NCBI GenBank assembly: GCA_025928645.1
Contig: JAICJD010000003.1
Coordinates: 1 to 56,069, forward strand
Direction: 5' to 3'
Source of the DNA: Gemmatimonadales bacterium
GTDB taxonomy: Bacteria > Gemmatimonadota > Gemmatimonadetes > Gemmatimonadales > GWC2-71-9
Length of the DNA stretch: 56,069 bases
The translations under genes were made by a program, and so were the position numbers. Positions 43,667-55,015 of this stretch are shown here, one piece after another. The first letter of the stretch is position 1. Each line of letters starts with the position of its first letter. Below the pieces are notes generated by a model. That model was not told where the DNA came from, did not search any database, and worked only from the letters and a program-made list of their open reading frames with translations.

Positions 43667-44269
43667 TTAGAGCCCCACGTTGCTGGCGCGGGTGACGTGG
43701 ACATCCACCAGGGCGTCGAGCAGGCCCACGCGCTCGCGCCACAGCTTGAGCACCTGCTCGTCGCGCGCCTGCTGCGCCAGCAGGTCGGCCATCTCCAGCT
43801 CCCGGTCCACCGTCGCGATCCGGTCCTCCAGCTCCTGGGCGATGCCGGCGGTGCGGCCGTCGAGCACGCGCTGGTCGGGCTGGTAGCGGCTCAAGGCGTT
43901 CTCGAGCGCCTGGGAGCGGGCCATCGCCGCCTGAATCTCCTGCTCGCCGGGATTGGTGGCCGGGTTGCCGCGGGGTCCCAGCGAGACGCCGAGCGCGATG
44001 GACGCGGCCGCCGCCAGCCCGATCAGGCCGGCCGTGCGCTGCCGGCGGTTCCGCCGCTCGACCCGGTACCGGGCCGAGACCTGGGGCCAGCGGTCGCGGC
44101 TCGGGCGCAGGGCGGGAAGGGCCTTGAGCCGGGCGACCCGCTGGTGAAGCCGCTCGAGCTCGGCCCGGCAGCGCGGACAGCCGTCGAGGTGGGCCCGGGC
44201 CGAGGCGTCGCCCGGCTCGAGCCCCGCCTCGCGGAGGCTGAGCAGCGCTTCCACGGTCAGGTGGGTCAT
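43667..44269 (-). CDS. Zinc-binding (ZAS) anti-sigma factor
   Basis: N-terminal H...HLDGCPRC (HxxxCxxC) and one TM. ATGA overlap with the sigma gene. Confidence 0.8.
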   Translation of the reverse strand: MTHLTVEALLSLREAGLEPGDASARAHLDGCPRCRAELERLHQRVARLKALPALRPSRDRWPQVSARYRVERRNRRQRTAGLIGLAAAASIALGVSLGPRGNPATNPGEQEIQAAMARSQALENALSRYQPDQRVLDGRTAGIAQELEDRIATVDRELEMADLLAQQARDEQVLKLWRERVGLLDALVDVHVTRASNVGL

Positions 44270-44820
44270 CCCTCCACCTCCTCGCCGAGCCAGCGGCGCA
44301 GGCGCTGGTGCGCCCGCGCGAGCTGCGACTTCGAGAAGCTCGGCGTCTTGCCCATCATGCCCGCGATCTCGTCGTGGGTGTAGCCTTCGACGTCGTGCAG
44401 CCAGACCACGGCCCGGGAGGTCTCGGAGAGCCGTTCGAGGGCGGCCTCGAGATCCATGCGGAGCGCCGTGTCCTCCCGCCGTTGGCCGACGGCCTCTTCC
44501 TGGAGCTCGTCGGTATCCCGGTACTTGTTCCGCCGGAGACGCATGAGCGCCTTGCTTGCCGCGATGGTCCGCACCCAACCCCAGAGACTCCCCTCCTCAC
44601 GGTAGCGCCCGATGCTGCGGCACACCTCGAAAAAGGTCTCCTGGAGCACGTCCTCGGCGTCTTCGGTGGTTCGGCAGATCCGGCGGGCAAGGTTGTAGAC
44701 GGGCGCCTCGAAGGCCCGGTAGAGCTCTTCGAGGGCATCCTCATCCCCGGCCCGAGCCCGGGCGACCACCGATTCGGCGTTGGCGAGGAGGTACGAATCC
44801 ATTAACTGGGTCCCGGTCAT
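44266..44820 (-). CDS. ECF sigma-70 factor
   Basis: DAEDVLQETF, WGWVRTIA, LHDVEGYTHDEIA...SKSQLARA. Confidence 0.9.
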   Translation of the reverse strand: MTGTQLMDSYLLANAESVVARARAGDEDALEELYRAFEAPVYNLARRICRTTEDAEDVLQETFFEVCRSIGRYREEGSLWGWVRTIAASKALMRLRRNKYRDTDELQEEAVGQRREDTALRMDLEAALERLSETSRAVVWLHDVEGYTHDEIAGMMGKTPSFSKSQLARAHQRLRRWLGEEVEG

Positions 44821-44937
44821 GGCGTTCTGAAAGATGCGGGGGCCAGGGACATGGTCGCAAAGGGGCGCCGGCGGTGAGCCCGTGCTCACATTCGAGATTC
44901 CACTGGAGCCCCGGGATGCGCTCGAGAACCTCGGGCC

Positions 44938-45354
44938 AACCGCACACCGGCGGAGTCCCTGGTCCGCGACAGTTCACCACGGAACCACGGAAAACACGGA
45001 CAACGGCCACGGAATAAAGCCTTTGGTCAACAGCACACCGGCGAGGCCCCCGGTCCGCGGACCTTCACCACGGAGGCACGGAGCGGCCCGGAGGAAAGCA
45101 CGGAGAACAGCAGGTGGTCAACCGCACACCGGTGCGGTCCCTGCTCCACGACCGGCGCCGGTGTGCGGTCACCCCACGTTTCTCTCCGTGGCCGTTCTCC
45201 GTGCCCTCCGTGCCTCCGTGGTTCGCTTTTCCCTCAGGCCCCGAACCCCGCCGGTGTGCTGTCACCCCTCGCCCGTTTCCGTGGCCGTTGTCCGTGTTTT
45301 CCGTGGTTCCGTGGTGAATCCCTGGCAATCCGAACCTCACTGGTATGCCGTCAC
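44938..45354. repeat. Mosaic palindromic repeat array, family A copy 3 (fully nested)
   Basis: Forward cores at 44942, 45033 and 45124; reverse cores at 45158, 45251 and 45340. Two forward and two reverse CACGGA units. Confidence 0.92.
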
Positions 45355-45455
45355 TCCAACCTGCTCCCCGCGCCCTTCGAGATGGCCAATGATACCCGTG
45401 TCGCGCTCTCGGAGCCCGCTTACCGCTCCCCGCGGACCGGGCTATATATCCGCCC

Positions 45456-46580
45456 ATGCCCGAGACCGCCGCACCTCATATCTGGCTGCACCACCTCGAA
45501 GACGAGGCCGATGCGGCTTTCCTCTACCGGGAGCTGGCCCAGGCGGAGCGAGACCCGCACAAGGCCGAGTTGTACCGGAAGCTGGCGTCCGTCGAGGACC
45601 GGCACGTGGAGATGTGGCGGACCCTCCTCGCGGAGAACGGCCACCAGGTCGAGACGCCGGGGCCCTCCCGCGGTGCCAGGCTGCGGGCCTGGATCGCACG
45701 GCGGGTAGGCGCGGGGGTGCTCCTGCCGATGCTGCTCCAGGAAGAGGGCCGCGAGGTCAAGGGCTATCTGAGCCTCTACCAGGAGGCGCCCGACGGGGTG
45801 GTCGGTCCCACGGCCCTGACCCTCGCCAAGGAATCCAAGGAGCACGCCGAGACGCTGGCCTCGATCAGCGGGACGGACGGAGAGCCCTGGCACAAGACCG
45901 GGGCCGGCGGATTCCTCCGCAACGTGGTGTACGGCTTCAACGACGGGCTCACCGCCAACTTCGGCCTGGTGGCCGGGATGCTCGGCGCGCAGGGCGGCGG
46001 TCTGGAGGTGGCGAGTCACGCCGTGGTGGTCGCGGGGCTCGCCGGGATGGCCGCCGACGCGCTCTCGATGGGGTCCTCGGGCTACCTCGCCGCCAAGAGC
46101 GAGCGGGAAGTGTTCGAGCACGAGATCGCGATGGAGAAGGAGGAGATCCGGCTCATGCCCGAGCTGGAACAGGAAGAGCTGAGCCTCATCTACCAGACCA
46201 AGGGCGTGCCGTCCGAGCAGGCCCAGGCGCTGGCCGCGCAGATCATGCAGGACCCCGCCCGCGCGCTGGAGGAGCAGGTCCGCGAGGAGCTCAAGATCGG
46301 CGAAGCGACCACGACTCCCATGCGCGAGGCGTGGATCACCGGCACCGCGACCGCGCTCGGCGCGTTCATCCCCGTGGCGCCGCTGCTGTTCAGCACGGGA
46401 CGGGCCGCGATCTGGGCCTCCTTTCTGCTCGCCATGGTGTCGCACTTCGCGGTGGGCGCCGCCCGCAGCTTCTTCACCGGCCGCGGCGTGATCCGAAGCG
46501 GCATGGACATGTTCCTCGTGGGCCTGGGCGTGGCGGGCATCGGGTACCTGGTCGGCGACTGGATCGTCAAGCTGCTCTGA
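45456..46580 (+). CDS. VIT1/CCC1 iron exporter with N-terminal ferritin/rubrerythrin-like domain
   Basis: ExxH motifs (EDRH, ESKEH), VYGFNDGL, ALSMGSSGYLAAKSE. Confidence 0.88.
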   Translation: MPETAAPHIWLHHLEDEADAAFLYRELAQAERDPHKAELYRKLASVEDRHVEMWRTLLAENGHQVETPGPSRGARLRAWIARRVGAGVLLPMLLQEEGREVKGYLSLYQEAPDGVVGPTALTLAKESKEHAETLASISGTDGEPWHKTGAGGFLRNVVYGFNDGLTANFGLVAGMLGAQGGGLEVASHAVVVAGLAGMAADALSMGSSGYLAAKSEREVFEHEIAMEKEEIRLMPELEQEELSLIYQTKGVPSEQAQALAAQIMQDPARALEEQVREELKIGEATTTPMREAWITGTATALGAFIPVAPLLFSTGRAAIWASFLLAMVSHFAVGAARSFFTGRGVIRSGMDMFLVGLGVAGIGYLVGDWIVKLL

Positions 46581-46683: not shown

Positions 46684-47622
46684 ATGCTCCGCTGGGGCCT
46701 CTGCTGCCAATTCGTCGACGCCCCTATCAAGTTCCGCTCGGCGACCCATCGGTACGTCTCGACCCTGACGGCCAGGGCGCGCCGCGACTACCTGGGCGGC
46801 ATCGCGGTGGACAACGGGCGCGCGCTCGTGGCCGCGGTGCGGCACTGCCACGAGCTCGGCATCGGCGCCTTTCGCATCACCAGTCAGATCCTGCCGCTCG
46901 GCACGCATCCGGAGAGCGGGTACACGCTCGAGCGCATCGACCGCCGGGGCACCGCGCGGGAGAGCTTTCTCGAGGCTGCAGCGCTCGCGCGCGAGCTTGA
47001 CGTGCGGCTCAGCTTCCATCCGGACCAGTTCGTCGTCCTCAATTCGGAGCGCCAGGCGGTGGTGCAGAGCTCGACCGCGGAGGTCGAGTTCCAGACGGAG
47101 GTCGCCGAGCTGGTAGGCGCCGACGTGATCGTATTGCACGGCGGGGGTGGCGCGGGCGGAGTCGAGGCGGCTGTCGCGCGGCTCGGCCTCGCGGTCGAGC
47201 GTCTGAGCGCGCGAGCCCGGAGCCGACTCGCGCTGGAAAACGACGACCGGCTGTTCGCGCCGGCGGACCTGCTGCCGCTCTGCGAGCGGCTGGGCCTCCC
47301 GCTGGTCTACGACGTCCATCACCACCGCTGCAAAGGCGACGGGCTGTCGGTGGCGGAGGCGACCGCGCGGGCCGCCGCGACGTGGGGCGCACGAGAGCCG
47401 TACTTCCACATCTCGTCGCCGCGCGAAGGTTGGAAGGGCGGCGACCCCAGGCCCCACGCGGACTACATCGACCCTGCGGACGTGCCGCGGGAGTGGCTCG
47501 GGATGCGCGCAACGGTGGACGTCGAGGCGAAGGCGAAGGAGCGGGCGGTCCGGGCGATCTCCGAGGCGATCCGCTTCGCCTCGCGCCCGATCTCCCGCAG
47601 CATGCCGGTCGGCGCCACGTAG
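46684..47622 (+). CDS. uvsE: UV damage endonuclease
   Basis: FRITSQI, RLSFHPDQF, LHGGG, LENDD, YDVHHH, HISS, HADYI, VEAKAKE. Confidence 0.9.
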   Translation: MLRWGLCCQFVDAPIKFRSATHRYVSTLTARARRDYLGGIAVDNGRALVAAVRHCHELGIGAFRITSQILPLGTHPESGYTLERIDRRGTARESFLEAAALARELDVRLSFHPDQFVVLNSERQAVVQSSTAEVEFQTEVAELVGADVIVLHGGGGAGGVEAAVARLGLAVERLSARARSRLALENDDRLFAPADLLPLCERLGLPLVYDVHHHRCKGDGLSVAEATARAAATWGAREPYFHISSPREGWKGGDPRPHADYIDPADVPREWLGMRATVDVEAKAKERAVRAISEAIRFASRPISRSMPVGAT

Positions 47623-48662
47623 TACCCGCAGAAGTAGAGCCCCGGAACGCCCGACGCGCGCCCGCTCGAGCGCGGCGTACCCTCCGGGCCGAGCGCCGCC
47701 CCGGCGCCCTGCAGGAACGCGTCCACCCGCGGGCGGTACCCGGTGGCGAGCACCACCGCATCGAACGCCTCCCGCGTCCCATCGCTGAACGCGACGCCAT
47801 CCGCAGTGAACCGCTCGATGCCCGGACGCACCGCGATCTCTCCTCGCTTGATCCGTTCGATCGTGCCCACGTCGATCACGGGTATGCGTCCCTCGCGGTG
47901 GATCCGGCTCAGCGGACCGCCCGCCGGACGTCGGAGGCCATGGCGCGTGAGGTCGCCGAGGACGGCGCGCAGAACCGGCGCGTTGAGCGCATCGGCGAGC
48001 CGCGGCGGCAGCGCTCGTTCCGCGATGGTGATCGCCAGGATGGGAATCCCGAACAGCTCGCGCGGGACGACATGCGGCGGCCCGCGCACCGCCAGGGTCA
48101 CGCGTGCGCGATGCTCGCACAGGTCGAGCGCGATCTCCGCGCCCGAGTTGCCGAAGCCGACCACGAGCACGCGCCGTCCCGCGAAGCGCGTCCCGTTCCG
48201 GTAGCCCGAGCTGTGCAGCAGCTCACCGCCGAACGCCTCCTGACCCGGCCACGTCGGCAGGTTCGGCTCGCGGGTGTACCCGGTGGCGACCACCAGCACG
48301 CGCGCGGAGTAAACGGTATCCTGCGTCCGCACCTCCCAGCCGCCGCCGGCCGGTCGCGCGGCGGCGACGCGCCGGCCGAGCCTGATATCCAGCGGAAACG
48401 CCTTCGCGTACGTCTCGAGATAGGCGACCACGTCGGCGCGCGGGACGTAGCGCGGAAGGTCGCGCGGGAACGGCAGGAACGGCAGCCCGGATCGGCCTCG
48501 GTCGGTGTGCAGGTGAAGCCGGTCGTAGTGCGAGCGCCACGCGGCGCCGACCGCGTCAGCCTGCTCCAGCAGCAGCGCGGGGATGCCGAGCCGCGCGAGA
48601 CAGGCACCGACCGCAAGCCCCGCCGGTCCGGCTCCCACGATCACAACGTGGGGCTCGGTCAT
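47463..48662 (-). CDS. Flavin-containing monooxygenase (class B, FMO/YUCCA-like)
   Basis: GAGPAG, W..HYDRLHLHT, FxGxxxHxxxY (FGGELLHSSGY), GFGNSG, ATGY. ATGA overlap with the upstream gene. Confidence 0.88.
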   Translation of the reverse strand: MTEPHVVIVGAGPAGLAVGACLARLGIPALLLEQADAVGAAWRSHYDRLHLHTDRGRSGLPFLPFPRDLPRYVPRADVVAYLETYAKAFPLDIRLGRRVAAARPAGGGWEVRTQDTVYSARVLVVATGYTREPNLPTWPGQEAFGGELLHSSGYRNGTRFAGRRVLVVGFGNSGAEIALDLCEHRARVTLAVRGPPHVVPRELFGIPILAITIAERALPPRLADALNAPVLRAVLGDLTRHGLRRPAGGPLSRIHREGRIPVIDVGTIERIKRGEIAVRPGIERFTADGVAFSDGTREAFDAVVLATGYRPRVDAFLQGAGAALGPEGTPRSSGRASGVPGLYFCGYYVAPTGMLREIGREAKRIASEIARTARSFAFASTSTVARIPSHSRGTSAGSM

Positions 48663-50209
48663 CCGCGAATGGACAAGGCGTGACGGAAGACGTTCCGCGG
48701 ATCCCAGCGAGCCTTGGTGCGCTGGAGCCGGGCGTAGTTGCCTTGATAGTACAGGACTGGCCACGGCACGCCCGACGTGTTGAGCGACGGGTCTGCGAGG
48801 TCGCTGTCGGGGTGGTTGATGAGCGCGCCATCGTACGCGTCGGCCGGCACCGGCACGCCACCGGTGTCGGCGAACAGGTCGCGGTACAATGCGCGCACCC
48901 AGGCGAGGTTCTTCGCTTCGTCCGCCGGGTCCAGCCAACCGGTAGTGCAGGCGATGTCGAGGATCGCCGCGCGCTGCGGCGACGCGGTCGCGTCGGCGGC
49001 CACGGTGTTGATCCGCCCGCCGTAGGTGGCAAGCCCGAGCATGCCGCCCATGACGTCGGTATCGCGACGGGTGAGATGGTCGTAGGCCGTTTCCATCTGC
49101 CGGTCGGTAAACCGCCGCTTGAGCAGCGCGTCCTTCACCTTGACGCTGACGCCGCCCGGCGGCCCGGCGAACAGGTCGGGAAACGGGTTCAGCGCGAACT
49201 CGAGCCACGGCAGTCGGGCCAGCTCCCGACCTTGAGGCGCCGGGAGGCCGTCGGCCAGCGCCGCCAGGTGCTCGTTCGCCTGACGCTCCGCCGCCGCGCT
49301 TGCCGTGCTGACGCCGCGGACGACGATCTTCCCGAACTGTTCCCGATGAAGCTCGAGCAGCGTCCACAGCGACGCATTCGGCGAGTCGGCGCCGCTGTTC
49401 CGCTCGCACCATACGCCGTGATTGGCGAGGAGACGCCGGAAGGCGGACCGGCCGATGTCGGCCCAGCTCCACTCGGCCCGGAACGTGGTAACCGACTCCG
49501 GCGCGGGCGGCAGCAGCCGGCGGGGGTTGTCGCCCAGGGCGCCGCTCGCCCGGAACCAGTAGCGGAGCACCACACCGAAGTTTCCGCCGCCGCCGCCGGT
49601 GTGGGCCCACCAGAGGTCGTGGTTGGGGTCGGCCGGGTCGCGGGTAGCGACGACGGTGGCCGCGTGCCCATCGGCGTCCACCGTCACGACCTCGACCGCG
49701 TGGAGATAATCGGCCGCGAGGCCAAGCTGGCGGCAGAGAAAGCCAAAGGCGCCGCCCACCACGTGGCCGCCCATGCCGATGGCGGGGTACTCGCCGAGCG
49801 GGACGACGGTTCCCCAGCGCTCGAACAGCGCCCGGAAGACATCGCCGACGGTGGCGCCCGCCTCGACGACGATGGCGCGCCGGGCCGCGTCGTAGTCGAT
49901 CCGCTTCATCGGCGACACGTCCAGGATGACGCGCACCTCCGCGTCGGAGACGAAATTCTCCAGGCAGTGGCCGCCGCTCGTCACGGCGAACCGGCGTCTT
50001 TCCCGTACCGCGGCCTCGACCGCCGCGACCGCATCTTCCGCCGAGGCGATCATGCGGACGTCGTCGGGTCTCGGCGTGTATCGCTTGTTGAACTGCTTCG
50101 CGACGACGGCGAGGTACCGTGGGTCGTCGGGACCGATGGGGGGCGGGACGCCGCGCGGATGCGGCTCGGTGCGGGGCCCGGGCTGGTCCTCCGGAGTCGC
50201 TCCCTTCAG
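48659..50209 (-). CDS. FAD-linked BBE-domain oxidoreductase (AknOx/TamL-like)
   Basis: SGGHC covalent-FAD His, GGGGGNFGVV, C-terminal GNYARL..TKARWDPRNVF. Start tentatively placed at a CTG overlapping the upstream stop. Confidence 0.85.
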   Translation of the reverse strand: MKGATPEDQPGPRTEPHPRGVPPPIGPDDPRYLAVVAKQFNKRYTPRPDDVRMIASAEDAVAAVEAAVRERRRFAVTSGGHCLENFVSDAEVRVILDVSPMKRIDYDAARRAIVVEAGATVGDVFRALFERWGTVVPLGEYPAIGMGGHVVGGAFGFLCRQLGLAADYLHAVEVVTVDADGHAATVVATRDPADPNHDLWWAHTGGGGGNFGVVLRYWFRASGALGDNPRRLLPPAPESVTTFRAEWSWADIGRSAFRRLLANHGVWCERNSGADSPNASLWTLLELHREQFGKIVVRGVSTASAAAERQANEHLAALADGLPAPQGRELARLPWLEFALNPFPDLFAGPPGGVSVKVKDALLKRRFTDRQMETAYDHLTRRDTDVMGGMLGLATYGGRINTVAADATASPQRAAILDIACTTGWLDPADEAKNLAWVRALYRDLFADTGGVPVPADAYDGALINHPDSDLADPSLNTSGVPWPVLYYQGNYARLQRTKARWDPRNVFRHALSIRG

Positions 50210-51729
50210 CGGGCCGCCTCGGGCTCGACGCGAGCCCCGAACGCCGCCGTCTCCACCCGGCCGGCGCGCTTCACCTGCACCCAGACGCGATAGCGACCCG
50301 GCCGGGGGAAGGCGTACGGAAACGACAATCGTCCGGCCGCGGTGTCGTGCATCGTCGCGGCCATCGCGGAATCCCGCGCCGCGATGCGGGAGCCGATCGC
50401 GCCCGCTGCGGTGTCGCCCGCCTCCCGCAGGGTGAAGGTCTCCTGCGCCGCCGGCGACACGGTCCCCATCGGATGGAGATGGATGAAGACCGACCCGTCG
50501 TCCCGCATCACGATCGCGTGCCCCGGCATGCCGAGATAGGGCGCGAGGGCCGCGAGCCTTCCGTCGGGCTCGCGGACCGTGAAGCGGAGCGGCGCCGGCG
50601 CGCCCGCGACCAGCGGCGCCTCGCCGCGGTCCCAGGTGATGGTGGCGCCGTCGGGCAGCGCGGCGCGGCGGCCGGTCGCGCCGCCGACGTAGGCCGCGTC
50701 GTCGCCGCTCGGCTCGGCGGCCGCCGGGATCGAGCCGGCGAGGTCCACGGTCGTCACCAGCGTCTTGGCGAACCCGCTCTCGTGCACCAGATCCGCGAAG
50801 ACCCGGTAGCGGCCGGGCGGCAGGGCGGGCATCGGCGCGTCGAACCGCACCGAATCCGCCGTCCGCGGATGCAGGTGCGCAAAGGCGTCGAGGTCGGGCG
50901 CGCGCACGAGGAACAGGTGCATCAGCCTGCCGTGATCCGTCACGAGCGGCGGCCAGGCGTGCTGCCCGTGCGCGCGGAGCCAGGCCGAGTCGCCGCGCAT
51001 GATCCAGCCGGAGTCCCTGATCTCGAGCCGGAGCGTCGGGGCGGCGCCGGATCCCGTCACGGCGGCGGCCGTGGCAAACGGCCGGTACATCCGGCCGACG
51101 AAGGCGCGGTCCTCGCCGCTCCACCAGCGCCAGCCCCCGAGCAACAGGAGTCCGACGAGTGCAGCGGCGCCGGTCATCGCGCGGCGTGCCGCGCGGCGCC
51201 GGGGCGGATCCGGGGCCCTGCCGGGCGGCAGCACGCTCTCGCGCACGGCGGCACCGACAATCGTGACGATGCCGGCGAACAGGAACAGGCCCGCCGCGCC
51301 GAGGATTACTCCGAGCCAACGGCCGAGCGGCAACCGGCGGTTGGGAACCGCGGCGACCGGCACCACCGTCGTGCCGGCGCCCTTCGCGCCCTTCACGGTG
51401 ACCGTGACGCTGTTGGACCCGGGCGCCATGATCCAGAGCCGCGTGCCGTACCAGCCGGCCGCGCCCGCGATCGGATGCGCGACGTCGGGCGGCGGCAGGC
51501 CCGCGCGCGCGTCGTACAGGTTGACCATCGCGGTGACCGTGTCGGGGGCCGCGCCCGCCACCTGCACGTCCACGTCGGCGACGCCGGGAATGACGCCGGG
51601 CAGGCGCACGTAGACCAGCAGGTGGTACGGTCCGGCATCTCCCTCGTACCAGACGTCGGGGCTTCCCACGTGCGCCGAGCACAGCACTACCATGCCGGCG
51701 AGCCCGAGCGCGCGGGCGGCACGGGTCAC
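50206..51729 (-). CDS. His-rich membrane protein with PmoB-like architecture
   Basis: GTGA overlap. Signal peptide followed by His20, a soluble domain, two TMs (about aa 138-162 and 185-203), then a soluble domain with DHGRLMH, AHLHP, PGH and IHLHP. The CDS is solid; the function is inferred. Confidence 0.6.
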   Translation of the reverse strand: MTRAARALGLAGMVVLCSAHVGSPDVWYEGDAGPYHLLVYVRLPGVIPGVADVDVQVAGAAPDTVTAMVNLYDARAGLPPPDVAHPIAGAAGWYGTRLWIMAPGSNSVTVTVKGAKGAGTTVVPVAAVPNRRLPLGRWLGVILGAAGLFLFAGIVTIVGAAVRESVLPPGRAPDPPRRRAARRAMTGAAALVGLLLLGGWRWWSGEDRAFVGRMYRPFATAAAVTGSGAAPTLRLEIRDSGWIMRGDSAWLRAHGQHAWPPLVTDHGRLMHLFLVRAPDLDAFAHLHPRTADSVRFDAPMPALPPGRYRVFADLVHESGFAKTLVTTVDLAGSIPAAAEPSGDDAAYVGGATGRRAALPDGATITWDRGEAPLVAGAPAPLRFTVREPDGRLAALAPYLGMPGHAIVMRDDGSVFIHLHPMGTVSPAAQETFTLREAGDTAAGAIGSRIAARDSAMAATMHDTAAGRLSFPYAFPRPGRYRVWVQVKRAGRVETAAFGARVEPEAAR

Positions 51730-52934
51730 CGCATCACCCGCGACATGCCGGCGCCCCACCAGAGCCCGACCCTGGACGATCCGATCGCGATGGCCACGGC
51801 CCAGCCGATGCCGCGCGCGAACGCCGCGAGGTCGAGGCGGCCGGCCGCGTCGGTCGGCACGTCCCAGAAGCTGTGCTGCCAGGCTCCCGGCCGCACCATG
51901 TATGGCCACTGGTCGCCCGCGAAGACCCAGTTGCGCGCGGCGGGCGAGAGGAGGAACTCGCCGAACCACCACTGCACAATGAGGAGCAGCAGCACGAAGC
52001 TCGCGCCCAGGCTCGCGGCCAGCAGCCAGTCGGGGCGCCGTCCGGCGCGGCGGAGCAGCAGGTCCATGCCGAACGCGGGCACGACCAGCAGCAGCGGGAA
52101 CTCGGGCGGCAGCATGTGGGTGACGGGCGTGTAGATCGGCGCCAGCCTGGCCTCGGCGGGGAAGAGCTGGAGGATCCACATCGCCGCCAGGATGCTGGCC
52201 ATGTACACCAGAGCCGCCGCGGTGGCGGAGTAGCGAAGCCGCCCGGCGCGGCCGATGGCGGCGAGCAGCACCGGGAAGGCGATCGCCGTCACCTGGTAGA
52301 AGTGCGGCCGGTGCATCGTGTTCGGGCGGCTGGCGTACTCGGAGATCATGGTCGCCGCCATCACCACCAGGAGCCCGCCGGCGAAGCTGAACGCCCGGGC
52401 CAGCCTCTTCACCTCTCCCGCGCGGGTCGCCCGGTTCTGCGCCGCCAGCAGCAGCAGCATCCCGCCGACCACCACCGAGATCATCCCGACGGCGAGCACC
52501 ATGTGCGGCGGGCTCATGATCTTGACGTCGAGGCCGTAGGCGTTGTGCCACCAGTCGTCGAACGGGGCCGAGGTGATCATCACGAACGTGCCCCAGATGG
52601 TGACCCAGGCGCCGAGCGGCGCGCGGAATCCCCAGAACCGCACCGACTCGGCGCGCTCGGAGGCGGAGCCGGCGAAGGTGGTGCGGAGCACGAGCCAGCC
52701 GCAGCTCACGCCCGCGACGATGGCCCCGAGTTGCTCCAGCAGGTGCGGCAGGGTCCAGAAGGTGTCCCGGCCGATGCTCTTGTGCCACGAGATATCCCAG
52801 AGGATGCCGGCGACGATCGCGGCGGAGGAGAGCAGCACCGCGACCCGCGGCCAGGCCGCGGCCGAGCGTGCGGGGAGGGCGAGCTGGGCGTCGGGCAGGT
52901 CCGGCCGCGGCGATTCGGTAGCGAGGGAGGCCAT
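51726..52934 (-). CDS. Polytopic membrane protein resembling a PmoC-PmoA fusion
   Basis: D47-x3-H51-x12-H64 (WDISWHKSIGRDTFWTLPHLLE) and D126-x3-H130-x13-H144 (FDDWWHNAYGLDVKIMSPPH). The C-terminal half resembles PmoA helices. The CDS is solid; homology is judged by eye. Confidence 0.65.
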   Translation of the reverse strand: MASLATESPRPDLPDAQLALPARSAAAWPRVAVLLSSAAIVAGILWDISWHKSIGRDTFWTLPHLLEQLGAIVAGVSCGWLVLRTTFAGSASERAESVRFWGFRAPLGAWVTIWGTFVMITSAPFDDWWHNAYGLDVKIMSPPHMVLAVGMISVVVGGMLLLLAAQNRATRAGEVKRLARAFSFAGGLLVVMAATMISEYASRPNTMHRPHFYQVTAIAFPVLLAAIGRAGRLRYSATAAALVYMASILAAMWILQLFPAEARLAPIYTPVTHMLPPEFPLLLVVPAFGMDLLLRRAGRRPDWLLAASLGASFVLLLLIVQWWFGEFLLSPAARNWVFAGDQWPYMVRPGAWQHSFWDVPTDAAGRLDLAAFARGIGWAVAIAIGSSRVGLWWGAGMSRVMR

Positions 52935-52989
52935 GGTGGACAGCAAGTTGATGCGGACGTCGGGGCTGGGCAACGGGGCGGCGAGCGGT

Positions 52990-53134
52990 GAGCGACCCAC
53001 CCCGCGACCTCGAGAAGACGGCCCAGGGCGCGGGCCGCCTCGAGCGTGGCGGGGCGCGGGGCCCCCGAACCCATCACCCCGACGACCGGCCGCCGGTGAG
53101 GGCCCGGGATCCGGTCATCGCCGTCGAGGGGCAT
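52990..53134 (-). pseudogene. N-terminal fragment of a LOG/TIGR00725-like protein
   Basis: RRPVVGVMGSG...AARALGRLLEVAGWV breaks off before the expected TGG motif, and the frame continues as non-homologous sequence. Confidence 0.5.
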
Positions 53135-53284
53135 AGAGCACATCCTTCCGTGGGGGGCCTCTCTAAACTGGGGGGTATCGGCGGGGTCCCGGCACCCCGG
53201 GACCGCTGAAGACAGCGGACAGCCTGTCCGCTTTCGACGCGGCGACGCCGCGGTCACCCTTGCCAGTGCGCGAGCGAGTCACGT

Positions 53285-54028
53285 ATGCGAAACCCACGGT
53301 GGATCATCGCGGCGGCGGGATTCCTTTCCGCCGCCTGCGGCGGCAGCGGCAGCGACGTCACCGGCCCCCCCGCCGGCACCGCGCCGACCGCGAACTTCGG
53401 CGTCACCTGCACCGGTCTCACCTGCAGCTTCAGCGACAGCAGCAGCGCGGCCCAGGGCGGCGGCGCCATCACGGCCTGGCAGTGGAACTTCGGCGACAGC
53501 ACAACCGCGACCGACCAGAACCCCACCCACAGCTACGCGGCCGCTGGCAGCTACAACGCGACGCTCACCGTCACCGACAGCGCGGGCACGACGGGCTCGG
53601 TCACCAAGCCGGTCGCGGTGCAGGCGCCGACCGCCGACCTCACCTGCACCAACGCGACCTCGCCCGGGGGCGCCACCACCTGCAGCCTCACGCTGCCCGA
53701 GCAGGCGAGCGTCACTGTCGTGACGACGGACAACATCCCGTGTGAGGCGCACGGGGACATCTTCGCGTTTACCGCGCCGGTAGCGGACACGCTGAGCAGG
53801 GATGTCTGCTTCGCGCCGGTCGGCACCCAGGTGACGCTGCCGTCCTCGCCCGCGGGGACCGTGGTGAGCTTCAACTTCGTTTCCGGGCTCACTCAGGACA
53901 TGACCGCGGTGCAGGTCAGCGGCCAGTATCCGCAGTGGACCATCGTCGGCGAGGATGCCATCGGCGCGCCGTTCCCGCCGGACTTCGCGGACCTGGGCGT
54001 GACGTTGACGGTGACACCGGGGCCGTAA
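53285..54028 (+). CDS. PKD-domain lipoprotein
   Basis: Lipobox LSAAC; APTANF...WQWNFGD...NPTHSYAAAGSYNATLTVTD. Confidence 0.85.
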   Translation: MRNPRWIIAAAGFLSAACGGSGSDVTGPPAGTAPTANFGVTCTGLTCSFSDSSSAAQGGGAITAWQWNFGDSTTATDQNPTHSYAAAGSYNATLTVTDSAGTTGSVTKPVAVQAPTADLTCTNATSPGGATTCSLTLPEQASVTVVTTDNIPCEAHGDIFAFTAPVADTLSRDVCFAPVGTQVTLPSSPAGTVVSFNFVSGLTQDMTAVQVSGQYPQWTIVGEDAIGAPFPPDFADLGVTLTVTPGP

Positions 54029-54031
54029 AGG

Positions 54032-54090
54032 GGAGTCACTGACACGGAGTCACCCTGGGCGACTCGCGCTCAGGGTGACTCGCGCTCAGG
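54032..54090. repeat. GAGTCAC/GTGACTC hairpin with direct repeat between convergent genes
   Basis: Inverted pair GAGTCACCCTG (54047-54057) and CAGGGTGACTC (54071-54081); GACTCGCGCTCAGG occurs twice. Confidence 0.55.
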
Positions 54091-55015
54091 CTGGCTCCGT
54101 CGGTGACGCCGGGACGGCCCCCCTCCCCCACAGCCACGCCGCCCCGCGCACCCCGCTCGAATCGCCGTGGCGGTTCGGCACGATCTTCGTGACGACGCTG
54201 TCGGAGAAGACGTAGCGCGGCAGCCGCCGGGAGACGGCCGCCGGCAGGTCCGGCAGGTTGGACATGCCGCCGCCCAGGACGACCGCGTCGGGGTCGAGCA
54301 CGTTGAGCACGCCGGCGAGCGCGCGGGCCAGCCGGTTTCCGTAGCGCTCGAGCGCCTCGCGAGCCGTTCCCTCACCGGCTGCGGCCGCCCGCACGATCTC
54401 CGGGCTCGTACGCGTCGTGCCCGAGAGCCGGGCAGCGTCGCGCTCGAACCCGGGTCCCGACAGAAAAGTCTCCACACAGCCCCGCTTGCCGCAGTAGCAC
54501 TCGGGCGCGGTGGCCCGCTCCTCGTCGGTCATCCACGGCAGCGCGTTGTGGCCCCACTCGCCGGCGATCTGATTCGGCCCTTCGTGAATTCGGCCGCCGA
54601 TCGCGATCCCACCGCCGACGCCCGTGCCCAGGATGACCCCGAACACCGCGCCGAGGCCCTGCCCCGCGCCGTCGATCGCCTCAGAGAGCGTGAAGCAGTT
54701 CGCGTCGTTTGCCACGCGGACCGGACGGGCGAGCCGCGCCTCGAGGTCCGCGAGCAACGGTCGTCCGTTGAGCCAGGTGGAGTTGGCGTTCTTCACCAGG
54801 CCGGTGGCCCGGCTCACGACGCCCGGGATTGCCACGCCCGCCGAGCCGGCGCGTCCGGCCTCGGCCTCGATCTCCACGACGAGCCGCGCGATGGCGTCGA
54901 GCGTGCCGGCATAGTCGCGTGGGGTGGCGACGCGGCGGCGCGCGGCGACGATCTCCGATCCGTCGAGCGCGATGGCTTCGGTCTTGGTGCCGCCGAGGTC
55001 GATGCCGATCTGCAT
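54086..55015 (-). CDS. ROK-family sugar kinase (Mak/fructokinase-like)
   Basis: IGIDLGGTK, NDANC, LGTGVGGG, GEWGH, CYCGKRGCVE, GDSSGVRGAAWL. Confidence 0.9.
   Translation of the reverse strand: MQIGIDLGGTKTEAIALDGSEIVAARRRVATPRDYAGTLDAIARLVVEIEAEAGRAGSAGVAIPGVVSRATGLVKNANSTWLNGRPLLADLEARLARPVRVANDANCFTLSEAIDGAGQGLGAVFGVILGTGVGGGIAIGGRIHEGPNQIAGEWGHNALPWMTDEERATAPECYCGKRGCVETFLSGPGFERDAARLSGTTRTSPEIVRAAAAGEGTAREALERYGNRLARALAGVLNVLDPDAVVLGGGMSNLPDLPAAVSRRLPRYVFSDSVVTKIVPNRHGDSSGVRGAAWLWGRGAVPASPTEPA

Follow-up and report, generated by a model that had tools for sequence, protein, structure and literature searches.

Within a 56,069-nucleotide window, the whole stretch of Gemmatimonadales DNA analysed here (contig JAICJD010000003.1), two overlapping genes on the minus strand encode a pair of proteins, P0002 and P0001, that probably form a copper membrane complex, not described before and common among soil bacteria. 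On balance, we read P0001, the product of the second gene, as the metal-binding subunit of an inner-membrane complex of two proteins; anchored in the membrane and facing the periplasm, it would hold or relay copper as an analogue of PmoB, the B subunit of particulate methane monooxygenase (pMMO). This reading is carried by a candidate N-terminal histidine preserved across the family, two conserved three-histidine clusters, a polytopic partner with PmoC-type ligand sets encoded directly upstream, and a predicted complex between the two proteins. The oxidation of methane and of ammonia is the work of copper membrane monooxygenases, and debate continues over which of their copper sites does the chemistry and what purpose PmoB serves. 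The elements of the pair lie as follows.

50206..51729, minus strand: whole P0001 gene, 507 amino acids plus stop (open frame; more than 3570 relatives; structural model with a predicted local distance difference test score, pLDDT, of 94.3 and a predicted template-modelling score, pTM, of 0.90)
51726..51729, minus strand: GTGA overlap of the P0001 GTG start with the TGA stop of the upstream gene, consistent with translational coupling (read in the sequence)
51673..51729, minus strand: predicted signal peptide, residues 1-19, ending C-S-A (positive n-region, hydrophobic core and small residues at -3 and -1 in 107 relatives)
51670..51672, minus strand: codon of His20, predicted first mature residue and candidate histidine brace (His in 104 of 107 aligned relatives)
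51334..51672, minus strand: domain 1, residues 20-132, an eight-stranded, CrdA/YtkA-like beta sandwich (model strands; fold and profile match to CrdA; sub-threshold YtkA match)
51115..51321, minus strand: transmembrane hairpin made of helix 137-164, an Arg-rich cytoplasmic turn and the membrane part of helix 175-213 (hydropathy and model)
50725..51087, minus strand: domain 2, residues 215-335, the first repeat, with D265, H266, H271 and H285-L-H287-P (conservation; hhalign to domain 3)
50215..50697, minus strand: domain 3, residues 345-505, the second repeat, with Y398, M401, H404 and H417-L-H419-P (conservation, hhalign and model; Z 8.9 to a filamin-type immunoglobulin fold)
51726..52934, minus strand: P0002, about 402 amino acids from Met23 of the long frame starting at 53000, a polytopic membrane protein with a likely PmoC core and a plausibly PmoA-like second half (invariant ligands, hhalign, PmoA matches)

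By direct translation, P0001 is a stop-free frame of 507 codons, and the long frame of the gene that it overlaps spans 51726-53000 (-). An alternative ATG lies inside the gene at residue 13; we prefer the GTG start because relatives begin at that same position with ATG. The G+C content of the window is about 72%. A word-indexed search recovered more than 3570 related proteins at E ≤ 0.001, and the cluster representatives number 3201 at E ≤ 0.001 and 484 at E ≤ 1e-30; given a family of this size, the frame is not a chance one. Every member is named 'hypothetical protein' and none otherwise. The closest named relatives come from metagenome-assembled genomes (MAGs) of Gemmatimonadales, and the genome of origin (97% complete) holds a single copy. 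Searched at E ≤ 1, neither P0001 nor P0002 matched any Pfam or NCBIfam family; as single sequences both returned only chance-level rows from the PDB sequences, a search of the ESM Atlas gave only unnamed clusters, and a promoter and terminator scan of 47000-54200 gave nothing useful. A literature search found no publication on the P0001/P0002 family, although supplementary files, outside its reach, might list it.

The N-terminus of P0001 reads MTRAARALGLAGMVVLCSA up to the predicted cut and HVGSPD after it. In the family alignment, which comprises 107 sequences at 33-79% identity to the query and underlies all residue counts given for P0001, the N-termini always begin charged and continue with a hydrophobic core and then a short c-region. 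At position -1, 90 sequences have A, 14 have G, 2 have S and 1 has P, and position -3 is chiefly A (49), C (16), L (16), T (11), S (6) or V (6). The residue that follows the predicted site is His in 104 of the 107; two of the three exceptions have a His two residues off in an A/S-H-Q-P context, and the third has Tyr. The H-V/I-G-S-P-D/N stretch beginning at this position is strongly conserved. Called by the -3/-1 rule together with conservation, the site leads us to infer that signal peptidase removes residues 1-19 and exposes His20. A lipoprotein reading was rejected, as the Cys at -3 stands outside a lipobox context and occurs in only 16 of the 107. Within domain 1, W99 (106/107), M101 (105/107) and Y35 (99/107) are near-invariant and are candidate surroundings of the putative His20 site.

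An AlphaFold2 model built on the same alignment (mean pLDDT 94.3, pTM 0.90) shows a signal helix, eight strands between residues 26 and 127, two long helices (137-164 and 175-213) and two further beta domains at about 215-335 and 345-505. A hydropathy scan finds the first of the two transmembrane segments. The loop between the helices (163-184) is Arg-rich and fits a cytoplasmic turn; therefore all three beta domains should face the periplasm. An earlier note on this DNA, made from the letters alone, had described the GTGA overlap with an upstream PmoC/A-like gene, a signal-like segment ending C-S-A before His20, a beta-rich first domain and two central transmembrane segments, and all of these hold, with the AxA-type site and its His shared by the family. 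It had also placed two HLHP motifs in the C-terminal part; both (285-288 and 417-420) are present and conserved. Domains 2 and 3, which bear one each, are homologous tandem repeats (hhalign probability 95.7%, E 9.4e-9), in whose alignment P-D-H-G-x-L-M-H(271)...F-A-H(285)-L-H(287)-P pairs with P-Y-x-G-M-x-G-H(404)...F-I-H(417)-L-H(419)-P.

Each repeat thus holds one H-x13-H-x-H cluster. H271, H285, H287, H404 and H417 are invariant (107/107), while H419, M401 and Y398 (106/107 each), H266 (105/107) and D265 (104/107) are nearly so. Judged by these residues, every repeat would offer a three-His cluster, to which the first could add Asp and His and the second Met. Domain 3 additionally carries an insert, a helical loop at about 421-466 that holds Met and His.

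At the level of fold, the likeness of P0001 is to copper proteins among more generic sandwiches. An exhaustive VIA-align search matched domain 1 to the Helicobacter pylori copper-resistance protein CrdA (9ll2_A) at Z 10.6, with a root-mean-square deviation of 2.7 and 101 of 108 residues aligned, tied with CBM56; P19/Tp34/FtrA/HftA follow at Z 8.1-8.6 and CopC at Z 8.1, and domain 3 reaches Z 8.9 with a filamin-type immunoglobulin (Ig) domain. Foldseek with the whole model returned only generic multi-Ig proteins. The matches listed by the two programs comprise generic Ig and fibronectin type III folds, CrdA, CBM56, P19 and CopC. CrdA is also the only match of the P0001 family profile to PDB sequences (E 0.0092). 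The YtkA-like family (PF13115) scored below threshold on domain 1 in 12 of 85 relatives scanned singly, at best 21.9 bits vs a cut-off of 25.9, and P0001 itself gave no PF13115 match. YtkA, or CtaK, has a role in copper. Both CrdA (9LL2) and YtkA (PF13115; Bacillus subtilis YtkA/CtaK) are small single-domain extracytoplasmic copper proteins and, unlike P0001, have no transmembrane hairpin.

Two fused proteins extend these links. P0394, a 1207-residue metagenome heavy-metal P-type ATPase with two HMA domains, ends in a tail that corresponds to the domain 2-3 module of P0001. Over residues 265-501 the two share 30% identity (E 1e-20), the His motifs are retained, and PF13115 gives a match; this arrangement suggests that the repeat module works on exported copper. 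In P0393 (L124:1874-6414, on a metagenome contig), a full-length P0001 relative continues in frame into a copper amine oxidase (N2, N3 and enzyme domains), and the PmoC-like partner gene still lies directly upstream. Of 79 metagenome loci, a single one has the amine-oxidase fusion, which is missing from the nearest relatives of each half; because it is a single event, we give it little weight.

The partner, P0002, is numbered from Met23 of its frame, and its relatives, of which 63 were aligned, are about 400 residues long. Its model has a pLDDT of 92.5. Invariant in all 63 partners are W46-D47-I-S-W50-H51, G55-R56, H64, D126, W128-W129-H130, Y133-G-L-D136, P142-P143-H144 and D291, so that two ligand sets, D47-x3-H51-x12-H64 and D126-x3-H130-x13-H144, stand out, each of which the model puts where a pair of helices ends on the periplasmic side. 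In pMMO, as PMC12576850 gives them, the CuC ligands are PmoC Asp156, His160 and His173 and the CuD ligands Asn227, His231 and His245. The spacings, x3/x12 and x3/x13, are equal in P0002 and PmoC; the first residue of the second set is Asn in PmoC and Asp in P0002. Reference pmoCAB operons were taken from four Methylomirabilota genomes, and their PmoC reads D-G-T-W-H-Q-T-V-I-R-D-T-D-F-T-P-S-H at the first set and N-E-F-G-H-x13-H at the second. The first motif of P0002, D-I-S-W-H-K-S-I-G-R-D-T-F-W-T-L-P-H, has its W-H and R-D-T at the same offsets, so that W-H-x4-R-D-T is common to the two proteins.

An hhalign comparison of P0002 with PmoC aligned 86 columns with both motifs in register at E 9.9e-5, with a probability of only 58%. 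The Pfam AmoC family (PF04896) touched a P0002 homologue in another genome at motif 1 with E 0.03, at 14.9 bits vs a cut-off of 26.7. In structure, P0002 residues 23-173 superimpose on residues 131-276 of a PmoC chain (7yzy_C) with Z 7.1 over 140 aligned residues by VIA-align. We regard it as likely that the N-terminal half of P0002 is homologous to the PmoC core. For residues 170-402, the top 12 VIA-align rows are all PmoA or AmoA, at Z 11.7-12.9 over 186-219 aligned residues, values that fall below the Z of about 13 under which helical matches may be mere common arrangements. Foldseek likewise ranks PmoA and AmoA chains first, with E of only 0.05-0.3, and hhalign against PmoA gives a probability of 1.2%; a PmoA-like second half is plausible. 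The P0002 profile matched no PDB sequence, and neither Pfam nor NCBIfam linked P0002 to CopD, HupE/UreJ or a transporter family. A di-haem cytochrome b561-type partner, suggested by a b561 fold match and by four invariant His, was considered and dropped, as the four invariant His lie at the same periplasmic end near polar loops, and the D-x3-H...H and R-D-T patterns are as in PmoC.

Modelled together, the two proteins are predicted to bind one another. P0002 (402 amino acids) and P0001 residues 20-507 were run three times alongside 3 controls, and the interaction score from aligned errors (ipSAE) has a median of 0.83 over the three runs and 0.00 for the best control, in models made from unpaired custom alignments whose calibration is only rough. 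The ipSAE mark is reached by 58 of 80 solved complexes and by 2 of 110 mismatched pairs. At least 82% of the contacts agree across runs, and the pLDDT of the partner is at least 86. In one part of the predicted interface, transmembrane helices 1 (139-170) and 2 (199-210) of P0001 pack on helix 3 (107-125) of P0002. In the other, domain-1 residues 44, 46-49, 68-80, 99, 101-102 and 106 touch P0002 residues 128, 130-136 and 141-142; in the model, therefore, the invariant face that includes W99 and M101 sits on the CuD-like motif.

The two genes also travel together. In a phylum sample of 301 Gemmatimonadota genomes, one of them (G181) unpublished, a P0001 relative occurs in 70 and a P0002 relative in 71. 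Both are present in 67 (66 of 300 when G181 is left aside), and in 67 of these 67 they are adjacent, on one strand and with the membrane gene first. The three genomes with P0001 only comprise one contig-end truncation and two weak partial matches, and the four with P0002 only include one clear case (G049, 40% identity). Across a species-level genome collection, the partner lies directly upstream in 77 of 80 loci, spread over Gemmatimonadota, Acidobacteriota, Verrucomicrobiota, Eisenbacteria, Methylomirabilota and Bacteroidota. Two of the three loci without an upstream partner begin at a contig end. The third, in a Verrucomicrobiia MAG (L092:4555-7479), is the only one with upstream DNA but no partner there; a divergent, unrelated polytopic membrane gene precedes the His-rich gene.

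Other loci depart from the usual arrangement in their own ways. One genome holds a second copy of the pair (G034:C2:92388-99787) in which about 4.7 kb separate the membrane gene from the His-rich gene, and in a Gemmatimonadales MAG (L021:4733-5938) the partner homologue has one in-frame stop at codon 60, which may be a sequencing error or mark a pseudogene. Among the longer proteins found, none joins P0001 and P0002 in a single chain, which is weak evidence. No third gene travels with the pair in the 80 loci searched; the commonest further neighbours are an OmpR-type regulator (16/80), a histidine kinase (9/80) and a redoxin (7/80), and an M28 peptidase also occurs. In 9 of the 80 loci (L030:6451-9594 and eight others) the same strand carries, downstream of the pair, a small unnamed open reading frame (ORF) of about 190 residues, a histidine kinase and an OmpR-type regulator, which together may form a dedicated sensor.

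How far P0001 resembles PmoB can now be set out. PmoB has a periplasmic beta domain, two transmembrane helices and more periplasmic beta domain, and the pMMO operon runs in the order C-A-B. The domain-hairpin-domain layout is shared by P0001, which has two domains after the hairpin and hence three soluble domains vs two. PmoB is encoded after C- and A-type genes, and P0001 directly after one gene whose C-plus-A-like nature is moderately supported. PmoB partners PmoC and PmoA; the partner of P0001 would be this one fused C-plus-A-like protein, which it is predicted to bind. A mature N-terminal His is common to PmoB/AmoB (PF04744; PDB 7S4H chain A) and, if cleaved as predicted, P0001. PMC12576850 gives PmoB His33 as a ligand of CuB that binds with both its amine and its side chain, together with His137 and His139. 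This HxH pair (His137/His139) lies in the N-terminal domain of PmoB, whereas the HxH motifs of P0001, at 285-287 and 417-419, lie in domains 2 and 3, a difference from PmoB that the earlier note had already pointed out. The domains of P0001 look CrdA/YtkA-like. Among the 8 true PmoB references, seven (L114, L115 and L118-L122) are without an N-terminal His, with a mature start near Q-G-M-G-A-K-S-Q or G-I-G-E-R-A-Q; the one that has it (L117) reads A-W-A before the cut and H-G-E-R-S-Q after it.

Homology to PmoB found no footing: P0001 had no match to Pfam Monooxygenase_B (PF04744) at E ≤ 1, hhalign of the 107-sequence family against the 8 Methylomirabilota PmoB sequences gave a probability of 1.2% with only a transmembrane stretch aligned, and PmoB is absent among the 50 structural matches listed for the whole three-domain model. 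Because it is built from different domains, P0001 is better called a PmoB analogue than a demonstrable homologue. The earlier note had left a choice between a PmoB analogue and a copper-delivery subunit. Analogy with PmoB is supported by layout, gene order, co-occurrence, the PmoC-type sets of the partner, its PmoA-like best structural match and the complex model; homology is not. Of the checks and refuting conditions that it had named, the conservation of His20, the co-occurrence of the two genes, with homologues rarely found without the partner, and modelling with the upstream protein came out in its favour.

We envision the pair as follows. Cleavage by signal peptidase would leave P0001 beginning with His20 on a CrdA/YtkA-like sandwich, followed by the transmembrane hairpin and then by two tandem YtkA-like sandwiches bearing H-x13-H-x-H. 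Through its first transmembrane helix and the invariant face of domain 1, P0001 would dock on P0002, which is proposed to hold two PmoC-type sites at the membrane surface and to have a PmoA-like second half. Copper, most likely the metal, would be captured by P0001 at its N-terminal His and its pair of three-His sites, and held beside the membrane sites of P0002 or relayed to them. By layout, gene order and predicted partnership, P0001 would thus take over the position of PmoB in a complex that is distantly related to the copper membrane monooxygenases and not described before; copper transfer and any catalysis by the pair are our extrapolation from these features.

Several points weigh against this reading. 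Domain 1 has no second conserved His in the 107-sequence alignment (H36 is His in only 16 of the 107), and for that reason a brace within domain 1 would be at most mono-histidine. His20 is not among the confident interface residues of the complex model, whose rough calibration was noted above. The three-His sites are also compatible with zinc or nickel. On the side of the partner, the hhalign probability for PmoC stays at 58%, Pfam AmoC had no match in this genome at E ≤ 10, and PmoC is absent among the 50 matches listed from a wide fold search of P0002, in which cytochrome b561 (Z 12.6) and designed bundles, at Z 10-12.6 between them, match the N-terminal bundle equally well. The PmoA matches are subject to the caution on helical Z values already given. 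Finally, no copper-homeostasis gene recurs near the pair in the 80 loci.

Within this picture the evidence pulls both ways on what the complex does. The invariant PmoC-type sets, the PmoA-like half, the patchy distribution and the lack of recurrent copper-homeostasis neighbours favour an enzyme; the CrdA/YtkA-type domains and the repeat module that ends a copper ATPase favour trafficking. We tentatively entertain, as a minority possibility that deserves to be taken seriously, that the pair belongs to the copper membrane monooxygenase superfamily as a deep branch that has gone unrecognised, with C and A fused and, in place of PmoB, a non-homologous copper protein of three YtkA-type domains that bears an N-terminal histidine brace. 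A stricter version, which we think unlikely, would make the pair a catalytically active copper membrane monooxygenase, from a deep branch not described before, with P0001 as a very diverged PmoB homologue, whose CuB-type site would be assembled from His20 and the HxH of another domain. That version can draw on the invariant ligand sets and R-D-T of P0002, its PmoA-like second half, the C-A-B gene order, the PmoB-like topology of P0001, the lack of recurrent copper-homeostasis neighbours and a patchy spread (70/301 genomes) like that of a niche catabolic trait. It runs into the null results with PmoB just given (the 1.2% hhalign probability, the missing Monooxygenase_B match and the 50 structural matches without PmoB), and into domains that are YtkA/CrdA-like rather than specifically PmoB-like; moreover, no substrate-related or alcohol- or hydroxylamine-processing genes accompany the pair.

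The other alternative is a copper acquisition or metallochaperone system like YcnI-YcnJ or CopC-CopD, in which P0001 would take periplasmic copper and pass it via P0002 into the cell or to cuproenzymes. Domains with an N-terminal His tethered to permeases are already described. In YcnI (PMC8424229), cleavage exposes an N-terminal His on a beta sandwich anchored by a transmembrane helix, with a mono-histidine brace and a conserved Trp nearby. Ang-1 (PMC12537917; PDB 9GCE) has an Ig-like periplasmic domain in which the His next to the signal peptide is 100% conserved, and binds Cu(II) by a mono-histidine brace; the same paper describes Ang-1 and Ang-2, the 'anglerases', as tethered by fusion to HupE/UreJ permeases with His sites. 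The likeness to YcnI (DUF1775)-YcnJ (CopC-CopD) of Bacillus subtilis is close in outline, with an exposed N-terminal His, a membrane-anchored beta domain and a polytopic partner in the operon, and the brace Trp of YcnI may be set beside the near-invariant W99 and M101 of P0001.

In detail, however, the systems differ. P0001 has no DUF1775 or CopC/CopD Pfam match above threshold, and DUF1775 is absent both from its own Pfam matches and from the 25 families listed for its 85 relatives. It has two extra domains with His clusters, and its partner is of PmoC type rather than CopD. The tether of the anglerases is a fusion, that of P0001 a separate coupled gene, and P0002 is unrelated to HupE/UreJ; 9GCE is absent among the 50 structural matches listed for P0001. 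The CrdA/YtkA-like domain 1, the P0394 ATPase ending in the domain 2-3 module and the single contig with the whole protein fused to a copper amine oxidase, partner gene upstream, all speak for a trafficking role. Yet P0002 resembles neither CopD, HupE/UreJ nor any transporter family and has PmoC-type sites instead, the amine-oxidase fusion is confined to 1 of 79 loci with the closest relatives on either side lacking it, and no copper regulators or pumps recur nearby. We consider an acquisition or metallochaperone system unlikely.

It is highly improbable that the metal is another one (zinc, nickel or iron) or that P0001 is a structural or sensor subunit without metal transfer: three-His clusters and an N-terminal His also bind Ni and Zn, according to the DUF4198 and Ang-1 data in PMC12537917, P19/Tp34-type iron/copper proteins are among the fold matches and genes of a two-component system come after the pair in 9 to 16 of 80 loci, but the closest links by sequence or by fusion lead without exception to copper proteins (CrdA, YtkA, the HMA-type ATPase, the PmoC-type sites).

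Were the pair to prove a monooxygenase branch with a replaced B subunit, about one fifth of the Gemmatimonadota genomes sampled, as well as several other phyla from soil, would carry a new membrane copper oxygenase. A P0002 family that keeps both PmoC-type sets next to a differently built periplasmic subunit would be a natural experiment on the need for the B subunit. The P0001 family, whose members number in the thousands among the Gemmatimonadota, Acidobacteriota and Verrucomicrobiota of soil, has neither a Pfam nor an NCBIfam model, and a role for it, whether in a new oxidation reaction or in a copper-trafficking route, would fill an annotation gap in many soil genomes.

In the window itself, the pair is neighboured by genes for an FAD/BBE oxidase, a flavin monooxygenase and a PKD protein. 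Farther off, within 43667-46580, an extracytoplasmic function (ECF) sigma factor gene (44266-44889, minus strand) is followed by a probable anti-sigma gene without a Pfam match, and a VIT1-family metal transporter with an N-terminal extension is encoded at 45456-46580 on the plus strand. Between the sigma factor and VIT1-family genes, at 44900-45400, ORF translations from either strand repeat near-identical peptides, a sign of repeated units in the DNA.

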